Source of the DNA: a virus
Length of the DNA stretch: 64,000 nt
IMG/VR virus record: IMGVR_UViG_3300035670_000099
Coordinates: 29,612-93,611 of that record
Reading direction: 5' to 3' (one strand)
Translations under genes and position numbers: made by a program
Shown here: in pieces, positions 27,126 through 45,800 of the stretch
Position numbering within the stretch: the stretch's first letter is position 1
Layout of the letters: each line of letters starts with the position of its first letter
The notes under the pieces: model-generated
Told to the model about the DNA's origin: nothing
The model's database searches: none
What the model saw: the letters and a program-made list of their open reading frames with translations, nothing else

Positions 27126-27506
27126 TTATTTAACATCATAGACTAAAAAGTTAGAACTCCATTCCAAAATGGATAGCAACATCTTTTGAAAAAAAATTAT
27201 AAATAATGATTTGACTTTTACTACTGACTTAAAGATATTGATTTTAATGTTCCTGATTTCAAAAGTAACTGCATGAGATGCATCATCAACTGAAACCAAG
27301 ACAATTGACTTGATTTTAGATGGTTCAAATTTATCTGTCTGCATGTTATTAGAGCGTAAAAAAGCAATAAATCTAGGATAATGTTCAGTTATCAATATCC
27401 AGATATCGTCTTGACAAGATATAAATAAATCATATCCTTCTTCACTTTGAAAACCTGAGATTGAGCAGTATTCAAGTATTTCTTTGATAGGATTAAGATT
27501 ATTCAT
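27126..27506 (-). CDS. Hypothetical protein
   Basis: ORF track, ATGA coupling to the gpK-like gene. Confidence 0.55.
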   Translation of the reverse strand: MNNLNPIKEILEYCSISGFQSEEGYDLFISCQDDIWILITEHYPRFIAFLRSNNMQTDKFEPSKIKSIVLVSVDDASHAVTFEIRNIKINIFKSVVKVKSLFIIFFQKMLLSILEWSSNFLVYDVK

Positions 27507-28273: not shown

Positions 28274-28644
28274 ACTCTTGGTGGGTAAACTTTAGAAATT
28301 ATGCTGGCGTTAGATCTTACTTGAGTACTTGTTATTTTAGTAGAGATTGTGTATTGATTTTCTCCAACTGTGGTTACAGTCCATTCATCACAAACACACT
28401 CTTTAAGATCTTCACCGGTGGGACTCCACTCAAAAGAAGATAAAGAGTACTGTCGTAAATCAGCTAAAATAACATCTAATTCAGGCTTGCTATACACTGG
28501 ACTGCGCACATCCCATTCACAATATGGTGATATGCCCTGCGTTAAAATTTGGCTGTAATTATCCCCTAATCTTGTTTTAATAGTTGGGATAATTGTGTTT
28601 TTAGATAACTGCCACAATGGCGATAATTCCAGCACTAAGCTCAT
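28270..28644 (-). CDS. Minor tail protein M-like (distal tail) paralog
   Basis: KTRLGDNYSQ...GI...SFEWSP....CVCDEW. Confidence 0.7.
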   Translation of the reverse strand: MSLVLELSPLWQLSKNTIIPTIKTRLGDNYSQILTQGISPYCEWDVRSPVYSKPELDVILADLRQYSLSSFEWSPTGEDLKECVCDEWTVTTVGENQYTISTKITSTQVRSNASIISKVYPPRV

Positions 28645-29156
28645 AAGACAAAATATCCGATTGTGTAATTAAACGCAGAAGCAGCACTTGAGACAATATT
28701 CAAAGCAGTGTTAGCTGTTAGCTTAAATTCTCTATTTGCTGCAAGACTTATATCTTTGACAGAACCTTGAGAGGACAAATAAAAGCGAATTCTGTCTGTA
28801 GATCCATCTCGAATAGTAATAGTCTGAGCGGTAGTACCTTCTAATTCAACTCTAATGAAAGACACATAAATACTTACTCCCGCTCCTGGCGCTGCTATTG
28901 CTGCTGTAGTAGTAGCAGTACTTGCAGTACCAGTTACAAATAGCATTGTTGGCGATACATTAGTTTTTGCTAGTAATCTTTTTGCTAAAGAGATTAAACT
29001 TGCTGATGCAGTGTCTGATGTAGCAGCAGTGTCACCTTTGTCTCCAATAGCTGTTGACTCAAATTGCATCACATCTGGATCATTGGCAGTCCCAGATCCT
29101 GAAGTTGTAGCTCTTTCCCGTTGTTGCCCGGCTCCGTCGATATATTTAACTGGCAT
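28641..29156 (-). CDS. Small virion accessory protein
   Basis: Ala/Thr-rich, GSGTANDP, C-terminal jelly-roll-like segment, within the tail-tip operon. Confidence 0.5.
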   Translation of the reverse strand: MPVKYIDGAGQQRERATTSGSGTANDPDVMQFESTAIGDKGDTAATSDTASASLISLAKRLLAKTNVSPTMLFVTGTASTATTTAAIAAPGAGVSIYVSFIRVELEGTTAQTITIRDGSTDRIRFYLSSQGSVKDISLAANREFKLTANTALNIVSSAASAFNYTIGYFVL

Positions 29157-29157
29157 A

Positions 29158-29631
29158 TTAAAAATCTAAAGCAATGAATGAGTTTATTTTAGCACTTAAC
29201 TTTAAGCTGTACGTTGTGTAATCCACAATAATAAATGACTCAGCCCAATCAGATGGATTTGTGTTGCTAAAAAATGTTGCCTTGACTCTTGCATAATAAG
29301 TAGCTTTGGGCATATTTGAAAACGTGGCAAATGTCTCTATTGTGTTTTGAGTCATTTCCCATGCTCCTGTCAATCCTTTCTTAATCTCTACAACATATCC
29401 AATTGTCCATGGAGAATTTTGCAAAGAACCATTAATTGTCTGTTGAGGTGGAAGCCAAGAAACATAAATATCAAAAAAGTTTGCTCCTTCCGTGATTGGA
29501 ATACCATCAGCTGATAGTTTACCAATTGGATTAGTTGATACTGTAACTTCTCTTGGAACTACATTAACGTTGGGAGCATTAGAAGACACTCGTTGAGGCA
29601 ACGAATCAAAAGCCCATTGTACTGGTGTCAT
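29158..29631 (-). CDS. FN3-domain protein equivalent to the C-terminal part of gpJ
   Basis: VSWLPP...GYVVEIK...TYYARVKA...SDW. Confidence 0.7.
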   Translation of the reverse strand: MTPVQWAFDSLPQRVSSNAPNVNVVPREVTVSTNPIGKLSADGIPITEGANFFDIYVSWLPPQQTINGSLQNSPWTIGYVVEIKKGLTGAWEMTQNTIETFATFSNMPKATYYARVKATFFSNTNPSDWAESFIIVDYTTYSLKLSAKINSFIALDF

Positions 29632-31562
29632 ATTGTTGACATACTATCAATAAAACTATATTTAGTACTATCATATTCTGATGCAGTAATTTCATGCATA
29701 CCTTCAATCGTTTCTGAAACAGGCACTCTATTTATTACTCGATATTGTTTAGGAACAACAGAATTGCCGGATAATATCCAGTTAGATTCAGGTGGCGGTG
29801 CTGCACTAAAAGCAGAAGTTACTGTGACAACTGAAGTTGTATTAGCAGTGTTTTCTATTGTTTCTTGTTGCCAAGTACCATCACTCAAAGTAACACTAAT
29901 TTGGTATGTTTGCCCTGCCACTAACGTCACTGGACTATCTAGATTAATTGTGGTTGTAGTAGCTGAAACAATCAATCCTCCAGCACGCATTTCTAATCGT
30001 TCAGAGTCAGATATAGTAATAATATCTCCTGGCTTTATAAAAGCTGCATAAGCCCTAGCTTTAAATGTTACTGTCTCTTGTTCTAATCTATCAGAAATTA
30101 AAGCTGCTACTCCTGCTCGTCTTGCTTGTCCTCTGCTAGTACATGCAATAGCTTCTAATTCTAGTTCTTTAATTCCCCATTTTTGTATAGCAATTGGATC
30201 TTCTACCATCTCAACTGTTTTGCGGTAAAAATCAGCTGGATTTAGCCAACTTACTAATGCTACAGTTTTTTTGGATTTTAGCCCAACTCTGCTATATATA
30301 AAAACTCCATCTTCAACATCCGCTTGCGTAAATTGGTATTTTATAGCATCTGGTTTATCTGCAATAAATGTTATCGTTCCAGCCTGCCAATAAGCAAATC
30401 CTCTAAATATTGTTATCAAAGATTCCAGTACTTGGTATGCTTCTGTTTTGGCTTGTAAGACAATATTACATTGAAATCTTGGCTCATAAATTGGGCTACC
30501 ATTTGTGCTATATCCGCTTGGAACTAATTCATTACAGTATTTACTAATCTCGTATAATCCCCATTTATCTATTTGTTTAGTATCAATATACTTGCCAAGT
30601 CCATATCTAGTATTTGTAATTAAATCATATAAAATCCATGCTGGATCTGAAACAGCTACGTTTGGTGTTTGAAAAACTCCATTCCAAACGCCATCATAGA
30701 CAATACGTCTATTCAATCCATCTATTATGGCATTACTTGGAACTTGTACTAATCTCCCAAATACTTCAAATAAGACATTTGGAACTGAGCTAAACCCAGA
30801 TGTATCAAACGAAAAAGCTGCTAAAGCTGTATTTGGATAATTTAATTTTTTGTTTGTAATTTTTGCGTAAGAAACAAACGACATATTGCGTTGGTATCCA
30901 GCCTTTTCGGTTTCTGCATTATCTAAAGTAAGTTTGATAACTTTAATAGATAAATTACCCAACCCAGTAACTGGAGGAAATCTAAATCTATAATCAAATT
31001 CTGTTGGGCTTGAATAACGCCCAGAAACTACATTGTAATAAGTAAATAATGTTTCATAAGCATTATTTACTTCTCGTTGTATAATAATTTGAAATTCTAT
31101 ATTAGTTGTTTCAATATTACCATTATCTGGATTCTGTCTTTGCATTTGAAAAGACAATTTTACTTTAACTTCATCAGGAATACCACCTTGAATTTGTTGA
31201 GTAACACCAAGATTATTTCCTTCTCCATTCCATTCTACTGCTGAATTTACAGATATTTCGTTTGAAATAGTATCTCCAAATCCAAATAATTCAATTGGTG
31301 ATTGAATTTGGGTTCCTGCACGATAATCGAATTGAACATTCTTGAAATTATCACTATTATCTTCATTTTTGACTGGAGTTTCATCCAGATAAACTCTAGT
31401 CAATGGATTTGTTCCAAAACCTTGTATTGGGCCTTCTGATATTGCTCCTAAAATGTAAGCAACTGAAGTACTGGTTCCTGTTATTCTAGCAACATTAGGA
31501 GTTCCTCTTCCTCCTTTACCGCCGCCACTTCCTTGGATTTTTTTATGTTTTTTGTGTTTCAT
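29628..31562 (-). CDS. Central tail tip protein J-like (N-terminal part)
   Basis: GSGGGKGG, ISEGPIQG, YRAGTQ.Q, YPNTAL, DPAWILYDLITNTRYGLG, EPRF.CN, CTSRGQARR. Confidence 0.92.
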   Translation of the reverse strand: MKHKKHKKIQGSGGGKGGRGTPNVARITGTSTSVAYILGAISEGPIQGFGTNPLTRVYLDETPVKNEDNSDNFKNVQFDYRAGTQIQSPIELFGFGDTISNEISVNSAVEWNGEGNNLGVTQQIQGGIPDEVKVKLSFQMQRQNPDNGNIETTNIEFQIIIQREVNNAYETLFTYYNVVSGRYSSPTEFDYRFRFPPVTGLGNLSIKVIKLTLDNAETEKAGYQRNMSFVSYAKITNKKLNYPNTALAAFSFDTSGFSSVPNVLFEVFGRLVQVPSNAIIDGLNRRIVYDGVWNGVFQTPNVAVSDPAWILYDLITNTRYGLGKYIDTKQIDKWGLYEISKYCNELVPSGYSTNGSPIYEPRFQCNIVLQAKTEAYQVLESLITIFRGFAYWQAGTITFIADKPDAIKYQFTQADVEDGVFIYSRVGLKSKKTVALVSWLNPADFYRKTVEMVEDPIAIQKWGIKELELEAIACTSRGQARRAGVAALISDRLEQETVTFKARAYAAFIKPGDIITISDSERLEMRAGGLIVSATTTTINLDSPVTLVAGQTYQISVTLSDGTWQQETIENTANTTSVVTVTSAFSAAPPPESNWILSGNSVVPKQYRVINRVPVSETIEGMHEITASEYDSTKYSFIDSMSTI

Positions 31563-31564
31563 GG

Positions 31565-32587
31565 TTAAGAACCACCATGCTCATATTCTACATACGAAAC
31601 TTTCCAATGTATTTCTACTTTTTGGGAATAATCGTAATTTTGAGATAATCCAGATGTCACTGCTCTAACACGAATTGTCCAAGGGTTGACATTTGTATTG
31701 ACAAGAGAAGAACTGCACACAGCACTACCAAGCCCATCGTCATAAACGCAATTATATGGAGTTAAAGATACATCCTCTGTCAAAAATCCTTGTGAGTTAA
31801 AAATTAATTTATTTCCAGATATAATAAAACGAGAATTATAAGTATCTCCATCCCCTTGCACTAAAGAGAAAGTAACAGGAGAGTTATTTGGATCTCCCAA
31901 GAATTGAAGAGTAGCAAGTTCACTATTTGCTTGGTATAAATTAGGATCAAATGAAGCTTGATCTCCTAATAAAGTTTGACTTTGAAATCTTATCTGAAGT
32001 GGATTACCACTAATTGAACTATCTACTCTACTTGAAATAACATACATACCTGTTTGTATTCTCCCATACACAATAGGCATTCTACCGCCTTCTTGTGTGT
32101 TGTTAGGCAATCCTCCTATTGATTTACTCGTTGGCTCCTCTTCCGGCTTGGCTGGCTTAAATAAAGAGCTAATACCAGCAAGTAGTAAAATACTTCCTAA
32201 TAAAATTGTGGTGCTAGATTTAAGAATATGTGATCCCCAAATTGGAATTCCACCTGGAACCCAAATAGCTAAAGCAAACATTGCAGCAGCGCCGAGCCAC
32301 ATCCACCAATTGTCTCCACTGCCAGCAAGCACAGGGACAATTCTAATGTTACGTACTTTCTTAGATATTGGGCAGCTAAGCTTGTCAATTTTATCGTTAG
32401 TTATGTTTTCATGTCCAACAACTATGCGATATCTTACGCCGCGATTTTCAGCATCTTGTAAATAACTTAAAAAATTGCTAAAATTAGCTTTTAAAGCACG
32501 AAGTACTTCAGCAACTGATTCTACTGCTAAATCAAGTTTGCTTGTAAATAAATCGCCTAATTCACCTTCTAGGAAGACAGAGATCAT
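31565..32587 (-). CDS. Tail assembly protein I-like with C-terminal cadherin-like extension
   Basis: VFLEGELG...IRIVPVLAGSG, hydrophobic hairpin, NNTQEGGRMPIVYG; then FSLVQGDGDTYNSRFIISGNKL...IRVRA. Confidence 0.85.
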   Translation of the reverse strand: MISVFLEGELGDLFTSKLDLAVESVAEVLRALKANFSNFLSYLQDAENRGVRYRIVVGHENITNDKIDKLSCPISKKVRNIRIVPVLAGSGDNWWMWLGAAAMFALAIWVPGGIPIWGSHILKSSTTILLGSILLLAGISSLFKPAKPEEEPTSKSIGGLPNNTQEGGRMPIVYGRIQTGMYVISSRVDSSISGNPLQIRFQSQTLLGDQASFDPNLYQANSELATLQFLGDPNNSPVTFSLVQGDGDTYNSRFIISGNKLIFNSQGFLTEDVSLTPYNCVYDDGLGSAVCSSSLVNTNVNPWTIRVRAVTSGLSQNYDYSQKVEIHWKVSYVEYEHGGS

Positions 32588-32915
32588 GAGTTATCCTATT
32601 ATTCCTTTGGTTCCAAATTGGGACAGCACAAAGTCAGAGCAATCAAATATTATTGTAACTAAATACCAGCCTAACACAATTGAGGCAAGATCATCAAGAA
32701 CTAAAATCAATACCACAAATGTTACTTTCTCCGTGTCTGTTAATATAACTAATGGAACTGCTGTAGACACATTCTTGAGAGAACGTAATGGCAAAGCATT
32801 TAGAGTGGAAAATGACACTATGCTTTACTCTTGTACAGAATGGACTATACAAGCATTGGGAGAAGGTGTTGATTTATTCTCAGCTACATTTGAACAAGTT
32901 AGGAGATTTTTATGA
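32586..32915 (+). CDS. Minor tail protein M-like paralog
   Basis: VDTFLRERNGKAF...YSCTEW...FSATFEQV; ATG 32586 preferred. Confidence 0.8.
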   Translation: MSYPIIPLVPNWDSTKSEQSNIIVTKYQPNTIEARSSRTKINTTNVTFSVSVNITNGTAVDTFLRERNGKAFRVENDTMLYSCTEWTIQALGEGVDLFSATFEQVRRFL

Positions 32916-33643
32916 TTCCAAATTTATTAAGTTTAAATCCAGATTCATTTATAGAATTATATGAGATATATAAATACAGAGTGGAAGATATAAATAAAGA
33001 TGAAGCTGCACAAAATCCTAACGTGCCATCAACGATGATTGAAACAATTAGGATTGGTAGTATAGCCATGGATGAAAACACACCATGGGTTGTCTTTGAA
33101 GGCAAAACTTATTATGCAGTTGGATGTCAAGGAGAAGGATTTGATTTAATTGGACGTGGTACTATTCCTACTCCAACATTAACTGTATCTAACGTTGGTG
33201 GTATTTTGACTAAATGGCTAAAAGACAGTAGAGATCCAGCATACAGACTGGAAGGTACTCACGTCAAAAGACATGTGACTCAAAAAAGATTTTTAGATGG
33301 ACAAGTAGATGCTAATGCTGGGGTAAAAGAACTGCCAATACAAATTTATGTTATTGAACAGCTAGTAGAAGAGAACTATACTAACGCAAAATTCAGACTC
33401 GGATCTGCCTTTGACGTTGAGGGAATAACATTGCCAGCTAGAGTAATGGTGCGTAGCTGCACTTGGGTATATCGTAGTCCAGAATGCAGTTACGCTAATC
33501 CTGCAAAATTTACAATAAATAATGAGCCAACCCAAAATGCAAGTGAAGATTTCTGTGCAAAAACTATTGCAGCTTGTGAAACAAGATTTGGTGCAGGCAG
33601 TATATTACCATTTGGTGGATTCCCAGGATTAAATACTTACTAA
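32912..33643 (+). CDS. Minor tail protein L-like
   Basis: IELYEI, GFD..G.G..PTPTLTVSNV, CTWVYRSPECSY, CAKTIAACETRFG...LPFGGFPG (Fe-S Cys motif). Confidence 0.92.
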   Translation: MIPNLLSLNPDSFIELYEIYKYRVEDINKDEAAQNPNVPSTMIETIRIGSIAMDENTPWVVFEGKTYYAVGCQGEGFDLIGRGTIPTPTLTVSNVGGILTKWLKDSRDPAYRLEGTHVKRHVTQKRFLDGQVDANAGVKELPIQIYVIEQLVEENYTNAKFRLGSAFDVEGITLPARVMVRSCTWVYRSPECSYANPAKFTINNEPTQNASEDFCAKTIAACETRFGAGSILPFGGFPGLNTY

Positions 33644-33840
33644 ACCTCGGATTCGTTGCGTTTTAATTTCATGTATATCTTTATCTTGTTCCGTAGTTCT
33701 AGCTCCTGTATTAATCCACTAACAACTAATCTATTTACGATTGAACTGATAGATTCTTCTGTTTCTTGATGGATTGATTGTAAAACAGCAAAAACATCAG
33801 TTGATACAGACACGGAAACTTGTTTCATATTACCTCTCAT
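33640..33840 (-). CDS. Ribbon-helix-helix regulator
   Basis: KQVSVSVSTDVFAVLQSI...SISSIVNRLV. Confidence 0.65.
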   Translation of the reverse strand: MRGNMKQVSVSVSTDVFAVLQSIHQETEESISSIVNRLVVSGLIQELELRNKIKIYMKLKRNESEV

Positions 33841-33887
33841 TGCTTACTAAATTAACTATACATTATGTATAATGTACATAGCAAAAA

Positions 33888-33907
33888 AGTCCGACTTTAG
33901 TCGGACT
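33888..33907. promoter_or_regulatory. Palindromic operator between divergent regulators
   Basis: AGTCCGAC-TTTA-GTCGGACT, abutting the RBS of 33924. Confidence 0.6.
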
Positions 33908-33923
33908 AAAGGAGGTAACATAC

Positions 33924-34205
33924 ATGGAAATTATAACTAAATTTAATCCTATCCCAGACAAATATTCCTCTTTGGATAGACTCATGTGTCCACTAGAATT
34001 TAAACAAAAGTGGAAATTAACGATAGACGAGATGTCTTGGGTGCTGCAAATTAGTCCGGATACTTTTAAGTCTTGGGCTGTACCTGAGACAAGTGCCAAA
34101 AGCAGAAAAACACCTTTAATTGCTTTTGTTGCTTGCAAAGCATTAGATACTCTTTGGGAAAAGCAAGGTATGCCCAACGTTAGAATTTTGATGAATTTGC
34201 ATTAA
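33924..34205 (+). CDS. HTH-like DNA-binding protein
   Basis: FKQKWKLTIDEMSWVLQISPDTFKSW; strong RBS GGAGGT. Confidence 0.65.
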   Translation: MEIITKFNPIPDKYSSLDRLMCPLEFKQKWKLTIDEMSWVLQISPDTFKSWAVPETSAKSRKTPLIAFVACKALDTLWEKQGMPNVRILMNLH

Positions 34206-34227
34206 AAACTAATTTAATTACGAAACT

Positions 34228-34264
34228 GTGTACTTTGTCCGCATTATTTGTGTACAAAGTACAC
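34228..34264. promoter_or_regulatory. 11-bp inverted repeat
   Basis: GTGTACTTTGT-15 nt-ACAAAGTACAC. Confidence 0.55.
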
Positions 34265-34306
34265 TTGCTTTATATATACTTTGTTTTTATAGTTTAAGCA
34301 TAGTTC

Positions 34307-34347
34307 CAGAAACATTCCAGAAATAGTTCGGAAGTAAGACGGAAGTA
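34307..34347 (-). repeat. Array of four 8-mers (TAnTTCyG on the minus strand) at 11-bp period
   Basis: Plus strand CAGAAACA 34307, CAGAAATA 34318, CGGAAGTA 34329, CGGAAGTA 34340. Confidence 0.75.
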
Positions 34348-34357
34348 AGGAGGAAAA

Positions 34358-34732
34358 ATGGATACAGACATTTTGTATCCTGTTAAACACAAAAGACAGT
34401 ATAGGAGGAAAACTCAGTCATCGGTGGTGTTATCTGATTGCACCAGAGAAGCAATTGCACTTGAGCTGGAAGTATCTACTAGAACTGTTCAAGAGTTAAT
34501 CAGAATTGCATCAACGTATATTGATTTGTTTAATGAGTATACAGATGACAATTACAGATTAAATGGTTTGCCAATAGATTCAAAACAACAAGTTGAAGTG
34601 CTAAGGCAAATCAGACAAGTTAGGCAAAAGTACAGACACGTCAAAGACAAATCCTTTATCAAGAAGGAGTATCAAAAAATCAACGAAAAGGTTAAGGAGG
34701 AACAAAATGGCAGTCAAGAAAGTAACAGTTAA
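34358..34732 (+). CDS. HTH DNA-binding protein
   Basis: TREAIALELEVSTRTVQELIR; RBS GGAGG. Confidence 0.7.
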   Translation: MDTDILYPVKHKRQYRRKTQSSVVLSDCTREAIALELEVSTRTVQELIRIASTYIDLFNEYTDDNYRLNGLPIDSKQQVEVLRQIRQVRQKYRHVKDKSFIKKEYQKINEKVKEEQNGSQESNS

Positions 34733-35309
34733 AGATGTTGCAGCCTCAATTGGCTGGACAGTCAAAGAGTTGGTAACAAGGCTAAATCAAGAGCCTAACA
34801 TTAATGTCGCTCCTAGCGAAGCTTTTCCGACTTTGTCAGAGGACAGCGAGTTGTGGAAGCAAATCCAAGCTGCTGCTCAAAAAAGTCAAGTTAGTCAAGA
34901 GCCAGTTAAAGAGTCTGTCGCTATTGGAGAAGGCGAGATTAGTCCATACCAAACGCCAATACAAACAGTTGACACATTAGCTGAAGCTCAGAAAGTATTA
35001 GCAGAAGAGACAACTGGCATTCAAGTAGAACAAGCTCGTATACTTGGCTCTGTTGCTGGCATTAATGAAACCATTACATATTTTACAGCACGCCAACAAG
35101 TCACTGAAGCATTGCTTAGACATCATATTGAGCAACAAACTAATCTCACAGATAGTTTAATCGGAAAAGCCCAAGAATCTTCATTTGAGCTGCACAAGCA
35201 GACAAGAAATAGCTTGTCAGGAGCCTATGAATTAAAAAAAACTCTAGAAGAGCAAAAAGCCAGACTGAAAAACATAGTGACGCAAATGACACAATCATTT
35301 GGGATGTAA
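34707..35309 (+). CDS. Protein with N-terminal HTH-like segment and coiled coil
   Basis: VTVKDVAASIGWTVKELVTRL; Gln/Glu-rich helical C-terminus. Confidence 0.7.
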   Translation: MAVKKVTVKDVAASIGWTVKELVTRLNQEPNINVAPSEAFPTLSEDSELWKQIQAAAQKSQVSQEPVKESVAIGEGEISPYQTPIQTVDTLAEAQKVLAEETTGIQVEQARILGSVAGINETITYFTARQQVTEALLRHHIEQQTNLTDSLIGKAQESSFELHKQTRNSLSGAYELKKTLEEQKARLKNIVTQMTQSFGM

Positions 35310-35374
35310 TTAAGCTGGTTGATGAATCGACTTTAGCGCAAATAGAGTTAGCAATATCGATTGGACAAATTGAT

Positions 35375-35605
35375 ATGCTTCAGCAAATTCTAACAAGAAG
35401 AAAGGAGTTAATTAAAATCATGATTGACACATTGTTAGGAGTATCAAGTGTAGCAGGAGTGGCGACTATAGCGAGTTATTTTGCTGTTGCCACTGCTGTA
35501 GTCAATCCAGTTGTATTAACGGCATTAGGTGCAGCTGCTTTTTTAAGCGGTGTCTATATGCAATTTTCATCATCTAATTCAATTCAAATTACCCGGAGAA
35601 AATAA
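35375..35605 (+). CDS. Small 2-TM membrane protein
   Basis: Two hydrophobic segments; own start probably ATG 35420 (AAGGAG RBS). Confidence 0.65.
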   Translation: MLQQILTRRKELIKIMIDTLLGVSSVAGVATIASYFAVATAVVNPVVLTALGAAAFLSGVYMQFSSSNSIQITRRK

Positions 35606-35606
35606 C

Positions 35607-35864
35607 ATGTTGCTTAACGGAAAAGAACAAATCACAAGTCGTGTAGTAACTCAAATTACTAATACTACGTTGGAAAATGGTGGTACTTTGCATGACAAAA
35701 TAGAAACGCATTATTCACCAATTAATTCACACGTTGATAATGCTTTTTCTGCTGCAATTGTACCTTTAGCAATTGCTCTTGGCATATCCGGAGTAATTGC
35801 AGTATCTAACTGGACAGCGCCTCAATCACAGTCAAGAACATCATCCATTTGCTCAAATCAATAG
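35607..35864 (+). CDS. Small single-TM protein
   Basis: AAIVPLAIALGISGVIAV; GGAG RBS before ATG 35607. Confidence 0.6.
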   Translation: MLLNGKEQITSRVVTQITNTTLENGGTLHDKIETHYSPINSHVDNAFSAAIVPLAIALGISGVIAVSNWTAPQSQSRTSSICSNQ

Positions 35865-36282
35865 AGGCAACATGCTTAGCACATTGAAAGGATTTTTCTC
35901 TAACACAGGAGACAAATTAGAAAACATTCTGTATGGAGTCAATAAGCCAATTTTCCCATACGTTTACGAAGTAAGTGAGGAGGAAGTGAAGCAAATTACT
36001 GAAGACGCAACTGCAACAGAACAAATGGCTGCAAGAGTAAAAGCATATCTAAAAGCAGTGGAAAGAAAAACCAAAAGTGTTGAAGAAATGTTTAATGCAA
36101 ACAATGCTCTTGAAAAGTCAACGATGGCAACTGCTGAAAGACTACATGACAAAAACAAGATGATGTATGCCGCTCGAAAGGAATACAAAAAACAATTGCC
36201 TTTTAGCGTCAAGAGATACTTGCACCCAGCAAGGATTGTAGGCGATTCTACAGCAAACATTATCAAAGGAATTTGTCAATGA
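35797..36282 (+). CDS. Coiled-coil hypothetical protein
   Basis: ORF track; likely start MLSTLK. Confidence 0.6.
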   Translation: MQYLTGQRLNHSQEHHPFAQINRGNMLSTLKGFFSNTGDKLENILYGVNKPIFPYVYEVSEEEVKQITEDATATEQMAARVKAYLKAVERKTKSVEEMFNANNALEKSTMATAERLHDKNKMMYAARKEYKKQLPFSVKRYLHPARIVGDSTANIIKGICQ

Positions 36283-36536
36283 TGGAAGACGAAAGAATGA
36301 CAGATATTCAGAATTCAGCAAGGTGGATGTTAGGAGCCAATCAAATACTAATCGTCATAGCTTTTGGTGCTTTTACTGGCTATTTATCCCGCTATTATCC
36401 ACCTTCTAGTTCTGTCACGATAACAGTAATTACGTTTGCATGTATTTGTGGATTTCTGTTTCCAGCTACAAGAAAAATACTACTTTTAGTTGGAATATTT
36501 TATGGACTAGGACTTGTCCTTAGTCATTTGAATTAA
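36273..36536 (+). CDS. Small 3-TM membrane protein
   Basis: Three hydrophobic segments. Confidence 0.65.
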   Translation: MSMMEDERMTDIQNSARWMLGANQILIVIAFGAFTGYLSRYYPPSSSVTITVITFACICGFLFPATRKILLLVGIFYGLGLVLSHLN

Positions 36537-36600
36537 TTGTTTAGGAGATGCCAAGTGGATACCATTACTTGCCTCCTTATTCATTTTAAAGGGAGGTATT

Positions 36601-38433
36601 ATGTTCTTTTTTAAATCAAAAGCAAAACCTAAAGTTGTACACAAGAAATTTGAATTAAGTCCAGTTGTGTTGTACAACTTAATTGGAGTAACAATTTTAG
36701 TTTTTACACCTGCAATGATTAGCTGGAAAAATGCTAAAGAGTTGCGAGTAGCAAGTAGTGCCGTAGCAGTAATGTACTCTATGGTATTGTTAAAATATGC
36801 CCAAAACAATATTGATGAAGCTGATAGACTTGCCATAGAAAAAGAGCATTACTTTACGGCTTATGCTAATGCTTCTGGGGATGTTTATTTAAATTCAGAA
36901 CAACAAATCAAAAATGCTTTGTTGCCTCCTGCTTCTAGTCCAGAAGTAGACTTAGAAGTTCTGCATCCATTAGAAGATACACTCTTAAAATTAGGCATCA
37001 AAGCAACAATAGATGGAGAACCAATAGATTCTCCTACGTTTACTAGATTCAAGATAGTGCCTGACAAAGGAGTGCATTATCAAAAATTTAATAATTTATC
37101 AGATACCCTAAAAGTTCACATGGGGTATGATACGCCTCCACTGATTTCATGTCAAAGCAAGTATGTCTCGATTGATGTAGCAAAGACAGACTCAGAAAGA
37201 CGTTTTTGTGAATATCATGAATACTCAAACAATTTGAATTATTCTCTTGAGAAGTTCACTGTTCCTATTGGAGTTGATATCAATAACAATCTTGTTGAAG
37301 TGTCGTTATCAGATGCTAACTCCCCTCATTTATTGATTGCTGGAACTACTGGTAGTGGCAAGAGTGGTTGGTTAGTAGCTTGCATAACTAGTTTACTGGA
37401 TAGATTCCCTGCTGATAAATGCAGAGTATTTTTGATTGATCCAAAGCTAGTTGAGTTTGATATTTTTGAAAAATACAAACAAGTTGAGTTGGTAACAAAA
37501 CAAGAAGACGCTCTTACTTTGTTGCACAATTTACTTAACACAATGGAAAGTAGATATGAGCTGTTCAAAAAACATAAAGCACGGGATTTATCTCAATACA
37601 ATAGAGAAAATCCTAAGAATATTATGCCACGAGTTGTGGTGTGTTTTGATGAATACGCAACATTTATGGTAGGAGACAGCAAAGACGATTTTAACGATTG
37701 CTTATCTCAACTAGCACAGAGAGCGAGAAGTGCTGGAATACACCTTGTATTAGCTACTCAGCGTCCTGATGCGACAATTGTCACGCCTAGGATACGCTCT
37801 AACATACCTACTCGCATTGCATTAAAGACTATCCAACACCAGGATAGTGCTATAATTTTAGGAGTAGAAGATGGCACTTTAAATTCCAAGAATTTGTGTG
37901 GTAAAGGTGATTTAATTGCTAATTACAATGGCAAGCTAGAAAGACTGCAAGGATTGTATGTCAAAGATGTAGATTACACGTTATCAAATACTGAAATCAA
38001 GGAGTTAACAAATGTAGATTCACCTTGCCAAAATGACGAGATTGCCTATAGCTATGGTGAAGCACAAGATAGCGAGAAAGGTGAAGTGTATACTCACTTC
38101 TCCAAAACAGCTAAAAAGGATAGTGTACAAGCATTTGAGTCTAAAAACAAATTTGTAACTAGCTTAGTGAAGCTAAAAATCGCTGCCTTAATGTCTGGGG
38201 ATATAGACGAAACTGAGCCGTTATTTGATGATAGTTATGGGCTGTCATCAGAGCAGCAGCTTTTAGTGTTGAAGTTTTTTCTAGACAAAAACATAGGCAA
38301 AGAACGCACAATTAAAGCTCTATGGGGAACAAGTTCTGGTGGTAAAAATCATCATAAATATCAAAAATCAAGTGCTATTTATGATGACATGATATCTAAA
38401 ATAAAAGAACTTGAATACTTAACACAAGTGTAA
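36601..38433 (+). CDS. FtsK/SpoIIIE-family DNA translocase ATPase with N-terminal TM segments
   Basis: PHLLIAGTTGSGKS, LIDPK.VEF, VVCFDEYA, LAQRARSAGIHLVLATQRP, RIAL, LCGKGD; two N-terminal TMs; small C-terminal helical domain. Confidence 0.92.
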   Translation: MFFFKSKAKPKVVHKKFELSPVVLYNLIGVTILVFTPAMISWKNAKELRVASSAVAVMYSMVLLKYAQNNIDEADRLAIEKEHYFTAYANASGDVYLNSEQQIKNALLPPASSPEVDLEVLHPLEDTLLKLGIKATIDGEPIDSPTFTRFKIVPDKGVHYQKFNNLSDTLKVHMGYDTPPLISCQSKYVSIDVAKTDSERRFCEYHEYSNNLNYSLEKFTVPIGVDINNNLVEVSLSDANSPHLLIAGTTGSGKSGWLVACITSLLDRFPADKCRVFLIDPKLVEFDIFEKYKQVELVTKQEDALTLLHNLLNTMESRYELFKKHKARDLSQYNRENPKNIMPRVVVCFDEYATFMVGDSKDDFNDCLSQLAQRARSAGIHLVLATQRPDATIVTPRIRSNIPTRIALKTIQHQDSAIILGVEDGTLNSKNLCGKGDLIANYNGKLERLQGLYVKDVDYTLSNTEIKELTNVDSPCQNDEIAYSYGEAQDSEKGEVYTHFSKTAKKDSVQAFESKNKFVTSLVKLKIAALMSGDIDETEPLFDDSYGLSSEQQLLVLKFFLDKNIGKERTIKALWGTSSGGKNHHKYQKSSAIYDDMISKIKELEYLTQV

Positions 38434-38448
38434 TATTAAATATTGTGT

Positions 38449-38500
38449 TAGTTCCGTTTTACTTCTGTTGTAGTTCTGCTTTACTGCCGAAGTATTACCG
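38449..38500 (+). repeat. Array of five 8-mers (TAnTTCyG) at 11-bp period just after the FtsK-like stop
   Basis: TAGTTCCG 38449, TACTTCTG 38460, TAGTTCTG 38471, TACTGCCG 38482, TATTACCG 38493. Confidence 0.7.
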
Positions 38501-38611
38501 GAATTTAACCAGTATTTTGGTGTTAACACATTGCCAGTACTGTAAGTAGTTGGGAACAGCAGATAACCTCAATAGTTTACTCACGTCAAAGTAAATCCAG
38601 TAAGCAAAATT

Positions 38612-39190
38612 ATGATTAAAAATGATAAGTGGATTCTAGAGGAATGTAAAAAAGGGATGATTCAACCATATGAAACACAACTTGTTAAATACAACAATGG
38701 CAAGCGAATTAGTTATGGATTATCTTCTTATGGTTATGATATTAGTTTGTCTGACACAGAATTCTGGGTGTTTAGAAATGATAACAATACTGTTGTCAAC
38801 CCCAAGAATTTTATTAGAACAAATCTAGAATCTGTGCCTTTGCAAAAAGATGAATATGGAGAGTTTTTTGTAATTCCAGCCCACTCTTATGGATTGGGAG
38901 TTGCACTAGAGAAAATTACAATGCCTGACAATGTAACTGCTGTTTGTGTTGGTAAAAGCACTTATGCCAGAGTTGGATTGATTGCTAACATCACTCCTGT
39001 TGAAGCTGGATGGAGTGGACATTTAACATTAGAATTTAGCAATTCCTCCGGTGCTGACTGCCGAATTTATGCAAATGAGGGAATAGCACAATTACTGTTT
39101 TTTGAAGGTGAGACTTGCTCTACAAGCTATAGCCAAAGACAAGGCAAGTATCAAGATCAACCTGAGAAAGTGGTATTCGCTAAAGTCTAA
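38612..39190 (+). CDS. dcd: dCTP deaminase
   Basis: ISYGLSSYGYD, GKSTYARVG, TPVEAGWSGHLTLEFSN, YANEGIAQLLF, GKYQ. Confidence 0.95.
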   Translation: MIKNDKWILEECKKGMIQPYETQLVKYNNGKRISYGLSSYGYDISLSDTEFWVFRNDNNTVVNPKNFIRTNLESVPLQKDEYGEFFVIPAHSYGLGVALEKITMPDNVTAVCVGKSTYARVGLIANITPVEAGWSGHLTLEFSNSSGADCRIYANEGIAQLLFFEGETCSTSYSQRQGKYQDQPEKVVFAKV

Positions 39191-39877: not shown

Positions 39878-42800
39878 CTATCTTTTAAGTATTCCACCCT
39901 GTCTTTGTTGACGTTGTATTTCTACTATTACTGCTGTTTTAATAGCATTCTGCATCGCATTTGGATCTATAGACGGTGATTTGTCACCATCTTGACTTTC
40001 AATCGTTATAGGCACATTTACAGTTGTATTTGTTGTTGGTTGATTAATATTTCCTATTCCAGGAGATGGGGGAATAACTCCACCACTTGCAAAGTTCATT
40101 ATGTTTCTTACTTTTAATTCGCTATTGCTTACGTTACCTCCCATGGCGTAATTCATTACAGATTCAATATTGTTGTTTTTAATTACTTTATCTAATCCCA
40201 TCGACTGGAACTTAGCATTGTCAGCAACACTCAACACTCTTTCTCCTGGCGTTAATACTGCTACTACTGGTGTTATTCCTCCATTTGCAGCTTTTTCTCT
40301 GACAATCGCTTCATTTAATGATTGAATTATGCCTCCACCAGCATAGTTCTTGATTACTCCTCCTTTGTATTGGCTGAATACTTCGCCTCCATCGTTGGCA
40401 CTTGGAACTTCGCCGCCGCTATTTCCTCCAAATATTCCTCCAATTGATTTGAATAGTGAATCAAGAATCCCTCCTGCTCCTACTAATGACTGCATTAATG
40501 ATTTGATAGCTATGTTAATGAGTCCGCTCAGCATGTTTCTAGCTAGGTTGTTTAAGACATCGTCTAGTTTTTCAACACCCATTATTACGTCTGTAAGCCC
40601 AGCTGATAAATCATTGATTAAACTATTTCTTATTAAATCTCTTATAGAAGCTACTACACTTTTGGCTGAATTTTCAATTTCTTTAATTTCTGCATCACGT
40701 TTTGCTTTAGCTTCTTCTTTTTTTTCTTTTTTTTGTTGATCGTCAAGATTTGGATCATTTTCTATATCTTCTTTTTCTTTTTCATATTCTTTTTCTTTTT
40801 GCTTTATTTTTATATCTCTTTCTTGAGCGTTAGCAACAAATTCGTTACCTCCTGAATTTCTGTAATTTTGTATTGTAAGTAATTTAGTTTGTATTTTTGA
40901 CTCTTCAAAACGTTTTGTTTGTTCGTAATCTAAATTTTCTTTTTGTATCTTTGCCAGTCCCTCTACTGCTCTTGTTAAACGATCTTTTTCTTCTTGTGGT
41001 AAAACAGCTGTTTGAATTTTTTCTTTTAAATCAAGTACTCTTAAATCAATATTTAATTTTTCAATAGTTTGATCTTTACCAAAAGCTTCAGCTTCAAGTA
41101 TTTTTAAATTTGTTTTATCTTTATTTGTTTGAATTTCATTTAATGTTGTTTCAATAATTGCCTGTGTATTGTTATTTTGTTTTTGTTTATCACGAATACT
41201 TTCGGCTTTTTTAACTTCTTCTGCTATCTTGTCTTGAGTTAGCCCAGAAGTACTCAAACTAACTTTGATTTTTTCTTGTAAAAATTGAATTTCAGCTTGC
41301 TGATCATTAATTTTTCGTTTTAATGCTGTAATATCATTTAAGGTAGTTAAAATTTTATCTTGTTTTTCTGGGTCTTGTTTAATTGATTCTAATTCTTTTT
41401 CTTTTTGATTTAATGAGCGTTGATAGCTTTCTAATGCTCTTTCAAGTTCCTGTTTTTGCTTTTCATCAGGAGTAACTTTTCTATTTTGTGACACATTTTG
41501 ATTAACTCGTATTCTAGCTTGATCTAATTTTTTTTGTAATTCAGGAAGTTTGCTATTAATAATATTTAACCTTTCTTGAGCTTTTGATTTTGACGATTGT
41601 AAAGCATCGTTCATTTCTTTTATTAAATTACTACCGTCATTTCTTGAAATAAGTCCTTCTTTAACTTGACCTTCTATAGTTTTTCTGTATCTTTCAAAAA
41701 TTGCATCAATTGATTTTAATGCGCTAAATAAATTTGTTTTTTCAGTAGTTAATTTTTTAACAGATTCTTTAGCAGAATCAAGATCTGATTTACTTTGTTC
41801 AATTATTGATTGTGATTCAAATGATGTATTATTATTTATGATTTTATCTAAATCTTGCGTAATTTTGTCTATTTCTGATTGCTTATTTGTAATTGAATCT
41901 TCTTGTAAAATATTATCTTTTATTTTTTTTATTTGATCTTCAAGATTCTGTCTCAATAATCTAGCATCTTCCAATTGCTGTTTTTTTCTTTCAGCGTCTA
42001 AAGCTTGTTGTTGTTGAGTAACTAAATCTTGCGAAATATTTAAAGGTTGATTTGAAACAGGTATTTTTATCGTTGAATTTGTAGATACAGATGTTAATCC
42101 TGGCATTGAACCCTGGAATCCTGTTGTTGGATTTGAATGTGAACACAAACATTTTGTTGCTGAATCTAAAATAGATATTATTTTTGTTACTAAAATTAAA
42201 AGTGGATCTCCTGTTGCTGTTGTATTTGAAACAGGTATTGCACTTGCTGTATTTGCAGGTATTGTTATTGCTGTATTTGAAACAGGTATTGCACTTGCTG
42301 TATTTGCAGGTGTTGTTATTGCTGTATTTGAAACAGGTATTGCACTTGCTGTATTTGCAGGTGTACCTGTTCCTTGCAATATTTTAACTATGTCTAAAAC
42401 AAGCTTTTTCGCTTCAATCTGAGAATTATTTAAAAATCTATTTGCATACTTTTTCTCATCTTCTGTTATTATTGCATTTAAAGGGGTTTTTGTTTTATCT
42501 GAAGGTACAGGTTTTCTTGTTTTTTGTGTTTTATTTGGAGGAGCAAAAACATCATCTAAAGATTCATCAAAAAGATAACTTAAAAAATTAAATACTTCTT
42601 TTTCTGTTATTTTTGTATCTAAAACAGGTTTTGTTTTTTGTGTTTTATTTGGAGGAGCAAAAAAATCATCTAAAGATTTATCATAAAGATAACTTAAAAA
42701 ATTAAATGCTTCTTTTTCTGTTATTAATCCTATTTTTTTCAAATTATCAATTATTGGAGGAGTAAGAGTAACAGAGTTTGTTGGAAGCACAAGTTCTTGT

Positions 42801-45800
42801 TTTGATGTTAATCCTGCTTTTTGCAATTCATTTCCTAATTTAAGAATTGATTGAGAATCGAGGCTATTTACAGAACGTAAATTTAATTTTCTTAAAGTTG
42901 GAACTATTTGTTTTGAATGCTGAGGAATCCGATTACTTTCTTGTTTATTTAAAAAATAATTTTCAAGAATATTTAATGGAGTTCCAACTACATCACCAAT
43001 TACGCCACCAATTACAGGTATTCTAGATCCAAAATTTTTAGCGTGGTCTCCAAAATTTAATTTTTCTCTTTCTTCATTTCTTTTTTTAACTGCTTCTAAA
43101 GTAAAATGCCTTTTTTCTTTTTCAGGCATGCCATAATTAGTAGTTTTTGCATTATTATATTTAGGATTATTTAAGAAATCAACTATTTGATTATAACTTG
43201 ATCTTTGTATTACATTTAAAAATATCTGTTCAACATTTGGATTTATTGGTGAACTTCTGTAATTAGAAATATTTCTAAGCCTATTATACATAGCCTCTTC
43301 TGTTTTTAGGCGCTCTTCTAAAGTCGGATTATCATCATGAGGAATTGCTTGATATCTTAATGGCTTAGATTTAGGTTTGAGAAAACCAAGTGCTATTTCG
43401 TTTTCGTTATTTTTTCTAAAATTTATGTAATCTTTAGGATTTAAACGATTTGAAGAATTAAAAGACGAAGAAGTATTACCACGTTCATATCCAATTAAAT
43501 TCAAAGAAGCTGAAGCTATTTTTACTCCTTGATTAAATCCTGTGTTATTATTAGCAATTTGAATAGAAGAAGGATTGGAAACATGACTAGGTCTTATTGA
43601 AGGTAAAATATTTCCAGGCAAATTATTATTAGGAGTGTTTTGCCTATTCGATTGAACAGAGATAGTAACTATTTTGCTAGATCCAATGTTTGATAAATAA
43701 TTTTTTATTAAAGCAAATTTATAAACACTGTCACTTAAATTTCTGTTTAAAGATAATACACCCGATCCTAATCGATTCATTGATTTTCCTGTTTTATCAA
43801 CTGATTCTTCAATATAAGATACTTGTTTATTGGTAAATTTCATCTCTTTTCTAAGTCTTTCTAATTCTTTGAATGATTCTTCAAATAATTTTTTAAAAGT
43901 AGCAGTAGATTGTTGAGCAAAATTTTTAATAGCATTTACATTTTCATTTGCTGATTTACCTAATAATTGAATAGCTTCGCTAAGTTTACGTTTATCTTCA
44001 ATGTCTTTGCGAGCATCTTCTAAAGCTTTTTGCTCTTGTTGTATTTTTTCTAAAGCTAATTCATTTATTTCAGTAATAAATTCTGAGACAACTTGTGCTA
44101 ATTGTGTTAATTCATTGTCTCCCATTCCTTTAAGTAATAATTTTAATGTTTTACCAGAGAACCTATTGTTAAGCTCTATTACTGCTTTTCTTAATTCAAA
44201 TCTTGCATCTTCAATTTGTTTTTGTACAGCTAGATTATAATCTTCTATTTGTTTTTTAGCGTCTTTAATTTTGTTTCTTAAATCTAAATTAGCTTTGCTG
44301 ATATCAACAGATGCTTTTGATCTATCAACTTTTGCTTTATTTATTTCTTTCTGTAATTCTTCTATCCTTTCTTTGTCTGACTCTCCTAGCTCAGACGAAG
44401 GTATTGAATTTAATAAATTTAAGGCTTGTGTTTTAGTTTTTATTTCATTATCAATAGCATCAAAAGTTTTATTTAGTTGATTTATTTTTAAATTCAACAA
44501 TTGAATATCAGCATCAGATTGAGATATAGTACCTTTATCTAAATTTTTGTAAATTTCTGCTTCTTTTTCATTAGATTCTATTTCAAGCTCTTGAAGATAT
44601 TCATCATAAGCTTTTGTAAATTTATTTAAATTACTAACAATTTTTGTGTATCTAGATTCAATCTCTGGTATAGCTCCTTTAGGTAAAAGATCTTTGTATT
44701 GTTTAGAAAAAGTATCAATTTTTTTTATTAACTCATCAAAAAAGCTACCAACCTTAAATCCTGGAAAAAGCTTTTCCGCTAGTTCCTTTTGTTTTATTAA
44801 AGTTTCTTTAACATTTTCTAATTCTTTGTATTTAGAACTATATCTTGATATAATAGATTGTTTTTCCTTTTCAATATTTGAATACTCTTTATCTATTCGG
44901 TCTATTTCTTTTTCATCATTTGATTCAAATGCTTTTTGTCTTTTCTCGCTTAATTCTTTTTGTTTATTTATTAATTTATTTATTTTTGTTTTATCTTGAG
45001 AAAAGTTTGAATCTTTATCTTGATTGTATTTCTTTAACTCTTTAATATTATCTTCAACTTCTTTGAAAAGATCTTTCTCAATACTATCTTTTAACTCAAG
45101 CATGTTATTTAAAAACATTTTTACTGATTCAAGAGCATCATAATCAGTATCGCGTACAATTGTTCCATACATTCCAAGTTCTTTTGCTATTTTTATTTGG
45201 TTCTTAGTATAAACTTTAGGTTTGTTTTCATCATTAGCTCCTATGTCAACTTGACGTTTAAAACTACCATATCCTTTGTCAAACCAAGTAAGGGGCTGAT
45301 AAGTAGAGCCTAAGTTTCCTCTTTCAACTTGTTCGTCATAATAGTCTTTAAGCTGCTCTGGACTCATTTTCCCTGATTTTACTAAATGAGCAGCGTAATT
45401 TATACGCTTTCTACGTTCATCTTCTACGTACGATTCTTCTTCTCCTTGAACTCCAATTACAACAAATGGATTTAATTGAAAGCCTTTACTAGGAATTGAT
45501 TGATAAGCAGAAAAGTTTGGTTTATTTCCTTTTGTTTTTTTAAGCTCATTATTAAAATCACGAAAAGCATTTGCAGCATTTTCAATACTTTTTGATATAT
45601 CATTAAATCCTTCTTTAAAAGGAACAGAAAAATCAGCTGCAGATAAAAATAAAGTACCAAAAGTAATTGCTAATGATGCTGCTCCTTTCGCTAAAGATCC
45701 AATTGAAATTTTAATTTTTTTAATAGATGTTAATCCAATTGTAATGAAAGTACTAAAAAAAGCAGATCCTAATTTTATTACAGCAGGAATTGCTTGGCTT

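Follow-up and report, generated by a model that had tools for sequence, protein, structure and literature searches.

The viral contig IMGVR_UViG_3300035670_000099 of the IMG/VR database (93.6 kb, judged about 90% complete) carries a block of nine genes, tightly packed or overlapping, which ends with the gene for a membrane-anchored FtsK/SpoIIIE-type ATPase and which we regard as most likely a TraB/Spd-like, independently evolved, site-directed module for the translocation of double-stranded DNA (dsDNA). The block occupies positions 33640–38433 of the stretch analysed here, hereafter the window (64,000 nt, bases 29612–93611 of the contig), to which coordinates refer. A first-pass annotation had read in it a ribbon-helix-helix (RHH) regulator, helix-turn-helix (HTH) regulators, small transmembrane (TM) proteins and coiled-coil or helical proteins ahead of the ATPase, had placed it among virion genes, and had likened it to the TraB/Spd/Kor transfer system of Streptomyces plasmids. 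Gene content and order were borne out, with refined coordinates and conserved synteny, as was the setting, with tail gene L upstream and a tape measure homologue downstream.

Homologues in Cylindrospermopsis raciborskii virus CrV-01T were found for 50 of the 92 open reading frames (ORFs), and the structural genes of the two phages are 40–70% identical; on these grounds we assign the source to the siphoviruses of the CrV/Cr-LKS4 lineage. Near-identical sequence was found in lake-water metagenomes from more than 10 studies. All nine genes recur in one-to-one synteny, directly after tail gene L, in CrV-01T (gp045–gp053), in Cr-LKS4 and in 15 IMG/VR contigs, the latter falling into three clades, in which the ATPase is 99%, 49% and about 40% identical. 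Since the synteny is kept in two cultured phages and 15 metagenomic contigs, the block is not a chance arrangement. Across the clades the module proteins are 22–63% identical, compared with 58–72% for tail protein L, indicating that the module diverges faster.

The ATPase (610 aa; 36601–38433, + strand) is encoded by the last gene of the operon and matches PF01580 with an E-value of 8e-33 (114 bits against a cut-off of 24). In its AlphaFold model, a TM helix (residues 21–38) and a long helix (46–91) are followed by a disordered linker, an alpha+beta motor at about residues 120–465 (predicted local distance difference test score, pLDDT, of about 90), a second disordered linker (470–514) and a separate four-helix domain (515–609). 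The Walker A motif GTTGSGKS (248–255) and an acidic DE pair (350–351) are both invariant in the alignment of orthologues. The best sequence match in the PDB is FtsK (2iuu, 6e-41), spanning the alpha and beta domains; both the phmmer alignment to 2iuu and the motor hidden Markov model include alpha from residue 113–120, and the FtsK alpha-domain family PF17854 scored 20.6 bits, just below its cut-off of 22.9. Foldseek likewise aligned the protein with the FtsK motor (E 2.5e-29, TM-score 0.75–0.78), with FtsK ahead of TcpA and EccC/EssC. The protein thus resembles chromosomal FtsK/SpoIIIE in its motor, by sequence and by fold, and in being anchored in the membrane. It differs in having one or two TM helices instead of four and in lacking the gamma domain: PF09397 gave no Pfam match in the ATPase, and hhalign of the C-terminal domain against gamma returned a probability of 5.8%.

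Scores against NCBIfam models were likewise highest for FtsK (NF007615), at 132 bits against a cut-off of 1566, EccCa at 103 against 509 and EssC at 91 against 778; the TraB family model (NF041214) gave 60 bits against 800, and an SXT TraD model 18 bits. In a maximum-likelihood tree of motor domains (32 rows), four phage sequences and a copy from the cyanobacterium Aff. Roholtiella sp. LEGE 12411 formed one clade (support 89/98). This clade joined cyanobacterial FtsK motors fused to PD-(D/E)XK or exonuclease domains, NTPase-FtsK fusions and a protein of an Aulosira plasmid, with moderate support (84/94), and stood apart from the FtsK rows that bear gamma, while TraB of pIJ101, TcpA and EssC sat on long, unresolved branches. 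Because of the family scores and this position in the tree, the ATPase is, as far as sequence comparison goes, best classed as an accessory FtsK paralogue, neither a coupling protein nor a member of the TraB family. In the tree it does not group with conjugative coupling proteins, a placement that the first-pass annotation would have counted against its reading.

Coupling proteins of the FtsK-like kind in Firmicute conjugation, TcpA of pCW3 and the Orf21/ConQ type of Tn916, share with the phage protein a pair of N-terminal TM helices and one FtsK-like ATPase domain without gamma. However, they lack the alpha domain and score below FtsK by sequence (69.7 bits for TcpA against 143.8 for FtsK among PDB sequences) and by fold. 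They also work with a relaxase and a VirB4-type ATPase (tcpM lies beside tcpA), neither of which was found in the phage. The first-pass annotation had noted no relaxase or VirB4 near the block, and six-frame searches extended this to the whole 93.6-kb contig, where no match to Phage_integrase, Relaxase or Rep_trans was found, and where the VirB4-type family AAA_10 matched the P-loop of the FtsK protein alone, below its cut-off. No relaxase or type IV secretion system (T4SS) was thus found elsewhere in the contig, and Pfam scans of its larger ORFs revealed no conjugation or plasmid functions.

EccCa and EssC ranking second after FtsK, together with the small membrane proteins and a 136-aa helical protein in the operon, could also suggest a type VII-like protein secretion system in which an EssC/EccC-like ATPase with small membrane partners exports a small helical substrate. 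We consider this very improbable. The phage protein has a single ATPase domain, with a probable FtsK alpha domain, compared with three tandem domains in EssC/EccC; FtsK beats EccC/EssC by sequence and fold; EssC occupies a long separate branch of the tree, and the EccCa and EssC scores are far below their family cut-offs. Pfam searches gave no WXG100, EssA or EssB match, and protein secretion has no use for a C-terminal HTH or for DNA arrays.

Folded alone, the C-terminal domain of the ATPase was predicted with a pLDDT of 78, and Foldseek returned nothing from the PDB at E <= 0.001. VIA-align superposed its last three helices on tri-helical HTH domains (Z 5–6, root-mean-square deviation 1.4–1.9 A over 47–48 residues), among them those of DesR, EsrB, DosR, sigma region 4, LsrR, the G20C small terminase and KorB. 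On the predicted structure, the domain is likely to be of the HTH DNA-binding type. Its sequence signature, NIGKE..I..LWG..SGGK.H..Y, recurs outside the phages. A full-length orthologue with 38% identity is encoded in Roholtiella. In a search of the representative library with a profile of 501 positions, whose result was dominated by the motor, only about six clusters at 50% identity covered both motor and C-terminal domain. The signature is also found on a 644-aa P-loop protein of the Allocoleopsis PCC 7113 plasmid pMIC7113.05, typed as having no relaxase, where the ATPase gene closes an operon that starts with ParM, and, in each of three other cyanobacterial genomes (G149, G325 and G293), on proteins of 511–585 aa that have a Walker A motif and two TM helices at the N-terminus. 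The cores of these divergent carriers align with the FtsK motor around the Walker A and DPK motifs (hhalign 95.5%).

In the three genomes, the ATPase gene follows that of a 155-aa multi-TM protein and ends the operon, and each of the three related small elements concerned (L110–L112) carries a DUF3854/D5_N/AAA_25 primase-helicase; ParA, ParB and a tyrosine integrase lie near the ATPase in L110, the element whose flanks were scanned. By analogy, the make-up of these elements resembles that of actinomycete integrative conjugative elements, with no T4SS in the stretches examined. On plasmid3 of Aulosira laxa NIES-50 (L104, 24753–32171), an operon for eight predicted membrane proteins, among them a peptidoglycan hydrolase of the M23 peptidase family, has the gene for an FtsK alpha+beta ATPase at its end; this plasmid is also typed as MOBP/MPF_T. 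Pfam gave no matches for 20 small ORFs flanking the cyanobacterial loci.

Two repeat arrays enclose the operon. The upstream array (34304–34350, + strand) consists of four units with an 11-bp period (TTCCAGAAACA, TTCCAGAAATAG, TTCGGAAGTAAGA and CGGAAGTAAGG), in which CRGAARTA occurs three times at exact 11-bp spacing, and ends at the ribosome-binding site (RBS) of the first operon gene, which codes for a 124-aa protein. The downstream array (38448–38504, - strand) starts 15 nt after the FtsK stop codon and is inverted, again with an 11-bp period (TTAGTTCCGTT, TTACTTCTGTTG, TAGTTCTGCTT, TACTGCCGAAG and a unit with CCGGAA). The two pair as an inverted repeat (I1; 31 nt, 77% complementary), and they are the only arrays with a period of 10–12 bp, low-complexity sequence aside, in the whole 93.6-kb genome; shuffled sequences gave none. 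Comparable ATTCCnGAA arrays lie at both positions in the 49% clade. In the CrV clade, AAGACGG[A/C]AGTA is kept upstream, and a 12-bp-period array of AAGACAGCA lies in the divergent promoter region. As with the KOPS (FtsK-orienting polar sequences) and SRS (SpoIIIE recognition sequences) of the chromosomal motors, directional loading by short oriented motifs is plausible for the phage; unlike those genome-wide skewed octamers, the phage arrays are local.

The Roholtiella (Nostocales) contig has the same layout. Eight perfect TCGGAACTCAA units stand directly before its first operon gene and inverted copies follow the last. No other array of this kind occurs in the 16.8 kb, and the two share the CGGAA core with those of the phage. 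Its first two genes code for homologues of the 124-aa protein (hhalign 96.5%, E 8e-10) and of the 200-aa protein encoded next in the phage (97.1%, 169 columns), and the homologues of these two and of the ATPase come in the same order as in the phage. The contig is without virion genes, and no gene outside the module is common to it and the phage. Since Roholtiella and phage share this layout, we take the conserved unit to be an array, the 124-like and 200-like genes, small membrane protein genes, the gene for the ATPase with its putative HTH, and an inverted array. At the threshold used, no arrays at a lag of 10–12 were detected in the Allocoleopsis plasmid or in L110–L112.

Alternatively, the arrays may be centromere-like and bound by the 124-aa protein or the RHH protein as an adaptor, so that the module would anchor or segregate DNA with the FtsK motor at the membrane or the closing septum. 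The motor would keep replicating phage or element DNA attached and distribute or unlink it, for example by resolving concatemers before packaging or by delivering copies to both daughter cells. Arrays of 11-bp iterons beside an operon led by a small DNA-binding protein indeed resemble parC/ParR-type centromeres, a comparison based on parMRC of plasmid R1; clearing DNA from the septum is the native role of FtsK, and an HTH-like C-terminal domain is present along with the arrays. Nevertheless we find this explanation unlikely. The plasmid and integrative relatives already have ParM or ParA/ParB beside the ATPase operon, which would make a second partition system redundant; no plasmid replication or maintenance genes were found in the phage, and three dedicated small membrane proteins would not be needed for segregation.

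FtsK-like genes of other phages fall into several PHROGs families (including PHROG 1358/3551), with 362 phage records matching. Those of PHROG 1358/3551, of cluster J mycobacteriophages (gp196-203) and of Bastille-like Bacillus phages resemble the present one as phage-borne motors without an assigned role. In contrast to it, they lie outside the module clade in the tree, and the two cluster J examples examined do not stand in a conserved operon with small membrane proteins and arrays. The cluster J protein has a divergent C-terminal DNA-binding domain and no membrane domain, and its authors presumed that phage FtsK binds and translocates phage DNA (PMC3706429), a view that we count in favour of segregation.

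The cyanobacterial proteins of the nearest clades raise another explanation. These FtsK-motor proteins (P0004–P0015, P0143 and P0145) carry PD-(D/E)XK, 3'-5' exonuclease, HNH-like or GIY-YIG-like fusions, some with N-terminal TM helices, and from their sequences look like DNA-degrading defence or exclusion proteins. The phage protein may be a membrane translocase, made from the resident phage or element, that acts on incoming foreign DNA, in superinfection exclusion, or on host DNA, in takeover, with the arrays serving as operators only. Besides the motors with PD-(D/E)XK or 3'-5' exonuclease fusions and the membrane-anchored relatives ending in GIY-YIG-like or HNH-like sequences, this explanation gains from PADLOC, in which the matching models, SspH and mad8, are defence proteins with FtsK domains; from PHROGs, which class phage FtsK-like proteins as 'moron, AMG and host takeover'; from a small membrane protein that is hypervariable between near-identical phages, as in an arms race; and from mycobacteriophage Wanda, in which FtsK and a superinfection immunity gene are three genes apart. 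Yet where the relatives have nucleases, the phage ATPase has its HTH, and no nuclease was found in the operon with Pfam or PHROGs. The matches of SspH and mad8 to the ATPase are confined to their C-terminal FtsK-like parts and thus to the shared motor, and the other operon proteins gave no PADLOC match. That inverted arrays are conserved in the DNA of the element itself is a sign of self-recognition, and the operon, far from being sporadic cargo, belongs to the core of the entire phage lineage. On balance, exclusion or takeover seems to us somewhat less likely than segregation.

Between the arrays and ahead of the ATPase lie six smaller genes, all on the + strand. The 124-aa protein (34358–34732) has a basic N-terminus and an HTH-like segment, with a faint Pfam match to HTH_11 (E 0.07), and has orthologues in all phage clades. 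The 200-aa protein (34707–35309) begins with an IF2_N-like helical module (faint, E 0.038) followed by a long helical region; its Atlas neighbours are cyanobacterial clusters without names. Three small membrane proteins follow, interrupted by a helical one. From hydropathy and the orthologue alignment, the first (76 aa, 35375–35605) has two hydrophobic helices. The second (85 aa, 35607–35864) is single-pass by hydropathy and is the most variable product of the operon: it is 74% identical in contigs L005 and L006, where every neighbouring gene is 97–100% identical, and was not detectable by tblastn in other clades. The gene is thus a local divergence hot spot within the operon. The 136-aa protein (35872–36282) is predicted to be soluble and helical, without TM segments, and gave weak matches to helical families only; its stop codon overlaps the start of the gene for the third membrane protein (85 aa, 36279–36536). 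This last has two or three hydrophobic helices and the motifs TGYLSRxYP and LFPxxRK, and is the best conserved of the small proteins, with 27 invariant columns across the clades and 40–65% identity. The ORFs of the three TM proteins and the helical protein overlap or abut, as expected of Spd-like genes.

Upstream of these genes is a divergent control region (33860–33907). On its - strand side lies the gene for a 66-aa RHH-like regulator (33640–33840), divergent from the operon, with an RHH_7 match at E 0.002 and 18.9 bits, below the Pfam cut-off; the protein is the orthologue of CrV gp045 (35% identity), and its position is kept in contigs L004–L017. On the + strand side, a 93-aa Cro/CI-like protein (33924–34205) is 36% identical to CrV gp046, deposited as Cro/C1-type, and has no Pfam match of its own. 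The region contains the palindrome ACATTATGTATAATGT (33860–33875), with a TATAAT inside that is a candidate sigma-70-like element, and a perfect hairpin with a 9-bp stem (33888–33907) just before the RBS of the 93-aa gene. Both were read from the sequence, and the hairpin was also recovered in the terminator scan; they are putative operator or promoter elements. Further downstream, in 34229–34280 (+ strand), consensus scans alone gave a hairpin followed by a T-rich tract (34250–34264), overlapped by a sigma-70-like promoter candidate, TGTACA-18-TATACT (34251–34280), which is weak because promoter-like sites did not exceed their frequency in shuffled sequence. Metatranscriptome contigs from two runs of one study cover 34335–36334 and none covers the tail genes or the ATPase gene, although such contigs cannot rank expression level or timing and the uncovered parts prove nothing.

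Taken as architecture, the likeness to the Streptomyces TraB/clt/Spd/TraR(KorA) system of pSVH1 and pIJ101, proposed in the first-pass annotation, stands and was strengthened by the present analysis. The features of that system used for comparison are those given in PMC4447253, which also describes Spd proteins as poorly conserved themselves. In each, a membrane-associated FtsK-like ATPase has a C-terminal DNA-recognition domain (a candidate one in the phage), and short direct repeats adjoin its gene. Each also has several small membrane proteins that are translationally coupled and poorly conserved, and a repressor gene that is transcribed divergently. Relaxase and T4SS are missing from both, relatives of the phage module occur in relaxase-less elements, and both systems are carried by elements of multicellular, filament-forming bacteria. 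The phage module differs, however, in that its ATPase gene is the last of the operon while that of TraB is the first, in that its repeats form two inverted arrays with an 11-bp period, and in that its C-terminal domain has the look of a tri-helical HTH of the sigma region 4/LuxR type and not of a gamma-like winged HTH. Its carrier is a tailed, apparently lytic phage.

Considering these features together, the module would handle the element's own dsDNA at the cytoplasmic membrane. Its engine would be an FtsK alpha/beta motor of the hexamer type, with one or two N-terminal helices as membrane anchor and with the C-terminal HTH replacing gamma, and its cis sites would be the two CGGAA-core arrays, with one motif per helical turn (11 bp). 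The arrays would be bound by the HTH of the ATPase and/or by the HTH-type 124-aa and 200-aa proteins; this binding would autoregulate the operon and load the pump in a defined direction, and the pump would then drive the DNA through an assembly in the membrane of which the three small membrane proteins form part. In this way, a cell that is infected or carries the element may pass unprocessed dsDNA to an adjacent cell in the filament, following a TraB/clt/Spd logic evolved independently from FtsK. We infer the array binders, the action of the pump on its own DNA and the intercellular transfer alike. That the module is a site-directed pump acting on its own DNA is a reading towards which we lean slightly, and cell-to-cell transfer as its role is put forward as a tentative one. 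Intercellular transfer is nevertheless ranked first among the roles, because the elements of the relatives already have partition systems and lack relaxases, because all carriers found are filamentous, and because the module keeps its cis sites in both phage and cellular contexts. The fullest scenario is more doubtful still. In it, a tailed phage of filamentous cyanobacteria would use a site-directed FtsK pump with small membrane proteins to push its replicating dsDNA genome into adjacent cells of the filament, with no virion outside the cell involved, and modules of this kind would provide small plasmids without relaxase, and integrative elements, of filamentous cyanobacteria with a TraB-like transfer.

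The restriction to filamentous hosts that had been anticipated was assessed by searching the C-terminal domain profile against 401 cyanobacterial species genomes. Matches were found in four, all of 6.6–6.7 Mb; a fifth, weak match with an internal stop was discounted. The gene hetR, which marks filamentous cyanobacteria, is present in 4/4 of the positive genomes compared with 101/401 of those sampled (hypergeometric p 0.004, or 0.015 without the seed genome), so that no carrier lacking hetR was found in this set. The named carriers Roholtiella, Allocoleopsis and Aulosira, like the phage host Cylindrospermopsis, are filamentous.

Several observations weigh against a TraB/Spd-like transfer module, and it is as homology that the proposed likeness failed. 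The ATPase, with 60 bits in the TraB model and with TraB of pIJ101 on a separate, very long branch, has no family-level homology to TraB; no sequence similarity was found between the small phage proteins and Spd proteins; the three small membrane proteins matched no family in Pfam or PHROGs searches, and the regulators are RHH and Cro-like, not GntR. In hhalign comparisons, the small membrane and helical proteins of the phage showed no relationship to the positionally equivalent Roholtiella ORFs, which are alike in size and position only. The HTH assignment is no more than likely, since Z-scores of 5–6 are within the range of common helical arrangements. No clear downstream array was seen in the CrV clade. 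Across the genome, CRGAARTA has 24 matches against 9.6 expected, with 15 on the + and 9 on the - strand; it shows no strand polarity and hence no KOPS-like skew, so that the motif is to be read as a local site and not as a KOPS-like guide. Moreover, the upstream array may be only an operator, since it overlaps the 5' untranslated region and RBS, and pairs of operator arrays can also loop DNA. The nuclease-fused relatives beside the ATPase clade suggest, from their sequences, that this neighbourhood is concerned with DNA attack or defence. The phage module encodes no peptidoglycan hydrolase. The hetR association is support rather than proof, since it concerns four genomes that may be related to each other. 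Finally, CrV, which carries the same operon, is reported to be obligately lytic (PMC9303873, citing Martin et al. 2019), and it is not obvious what such a phage would gain from a transfer system; the deposited CrV annotation lists no integrase or transfer genes.

Persistence as a phage-plasmid, which the first-pass annotation had offered beside transfer, was dropped for want of support. No plasmid maintenance or integration genes were found: neither integrase nor relaxase was detected in the contig, and the Pfam-scanned ORFs included no ParA/ParM or plasmid replication initiator. The only ParB-like gene, which in CrV adjoins the terminase gene, is here located well upstream of it. The Pfam scans of the larger contig ORFs recovered DnaB, beta clamp, Erf, exonuclease, terminase, methylases and an intein-bearing ribonucleotide reductase; the last is an 1802-aa ORF outside the window (contig bases 10322–15730) with intein and LAGLIDADG homing-endonuclease domains and four LAGLIDADG_3 stretches.

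The tail genes around the operon suggest yet another role, in genome entry: the module would be made from the first DNA to arrive, and the pump would then draw the remainder of the ~94–104-kb genome out of the very long tail, comparable to how T5 enters in two steps or to the pull phase of phi29. Tail gene L adjoins the block immediately upstream (PHROG 18, E 2e-56), and downstream of the operon a dCTP deaminase gene (38612–39190) is followed by a single 6235-aa ORF on the other strand (39878–58585, - strand). This ORF is 42% identical over 235 aa to the CrV tape measure gene (4417 aa as deposited), and giant tape-measure genes are thus a feature of the lineage. Candidate host-type promoters, the absence of the late-type motif TGGCAAC upstream of the operon in a motif scan and, weakly, the RNA-library contigs over 34335–36334 but not over the tail genes would also fit early expression from entering DNA. 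However, module and arrays occur in the Roholtiella contig without virion genes, the C-terminal domain family occurs in plasmid and integrative elements, the CrV operon lies mid-genome (40–45 kb of 104 kb), and no fixed genome ends are known. We therefore consider genome entry improbable, less likely than either segregation or exclusion, and retain the transfer of the element's own DNA as the preferred reading.

The surroundings of the operon show further features. The dCTP deaminase gene has ~70% DNA identity to genes of Nostoc, Anabaena and Dolichospermum phages, which fits a Nostocales host, and the 6235-aa ORF is AT-rich (24–30% GC compared with ~35% elsewhere). Upstream, lambda-like tail tip genes occupy both strands of window 27503–33643: those resembling J, I and K are on the - strand, those resembling M and L on the + strand. 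CrV has its I, J, K and L genes in a common direction, with only the M-like gp036 opposed. The junction of L with the FtsK operon is the only part of the tail-tip layout kept between the two phages. The deposited CrV-01T annotation (71972–103953) contains a mirrored duplication of ~15 kb, in which gp067–gp085 recur reversed as gp106–gp124, surrounding a CRISPR array and methyltransferase genes.

Neither phage FtsK genes nor the TraB paradigm is new. In full-text searches of the literature, we found no description of the nine-gene module, its non-gamma HTH domain or the conserved inverted arrays, nor any that links such a module to relaxase-less plasmids and integrative elements of hetR-bearing cyanobacteria, and an AlphaFold survey of CrV-01T makes no mention of these operon genes. 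Phage FtsK-like genes are widely annotated and unexplained. Since the present gene has defined partners, a candidate DNA-recognition domain and candidate cis sites, the question of its role is directly testable, and cultured systems exist in CrV-01T and Cr-LKS4 on Cylindrospermopsis. Should the module prove to be an exclusion or segregation device, it would still be a new, compact, sequence-addressed DNA motor. If it moves DNA between cells, phage spread in bloom-forming Nostocales would have to be modelled differently, and cyanobacteria would have a conjugation route that relaxase-based typing calls 'non-mobilizable'. In that case dsDNA conjugation of the Streptomyces type would have been invented independently in a second phylum of multicellular bacteria, and intercellular dsDNA pumping would have evolved more than once among such bacteria.

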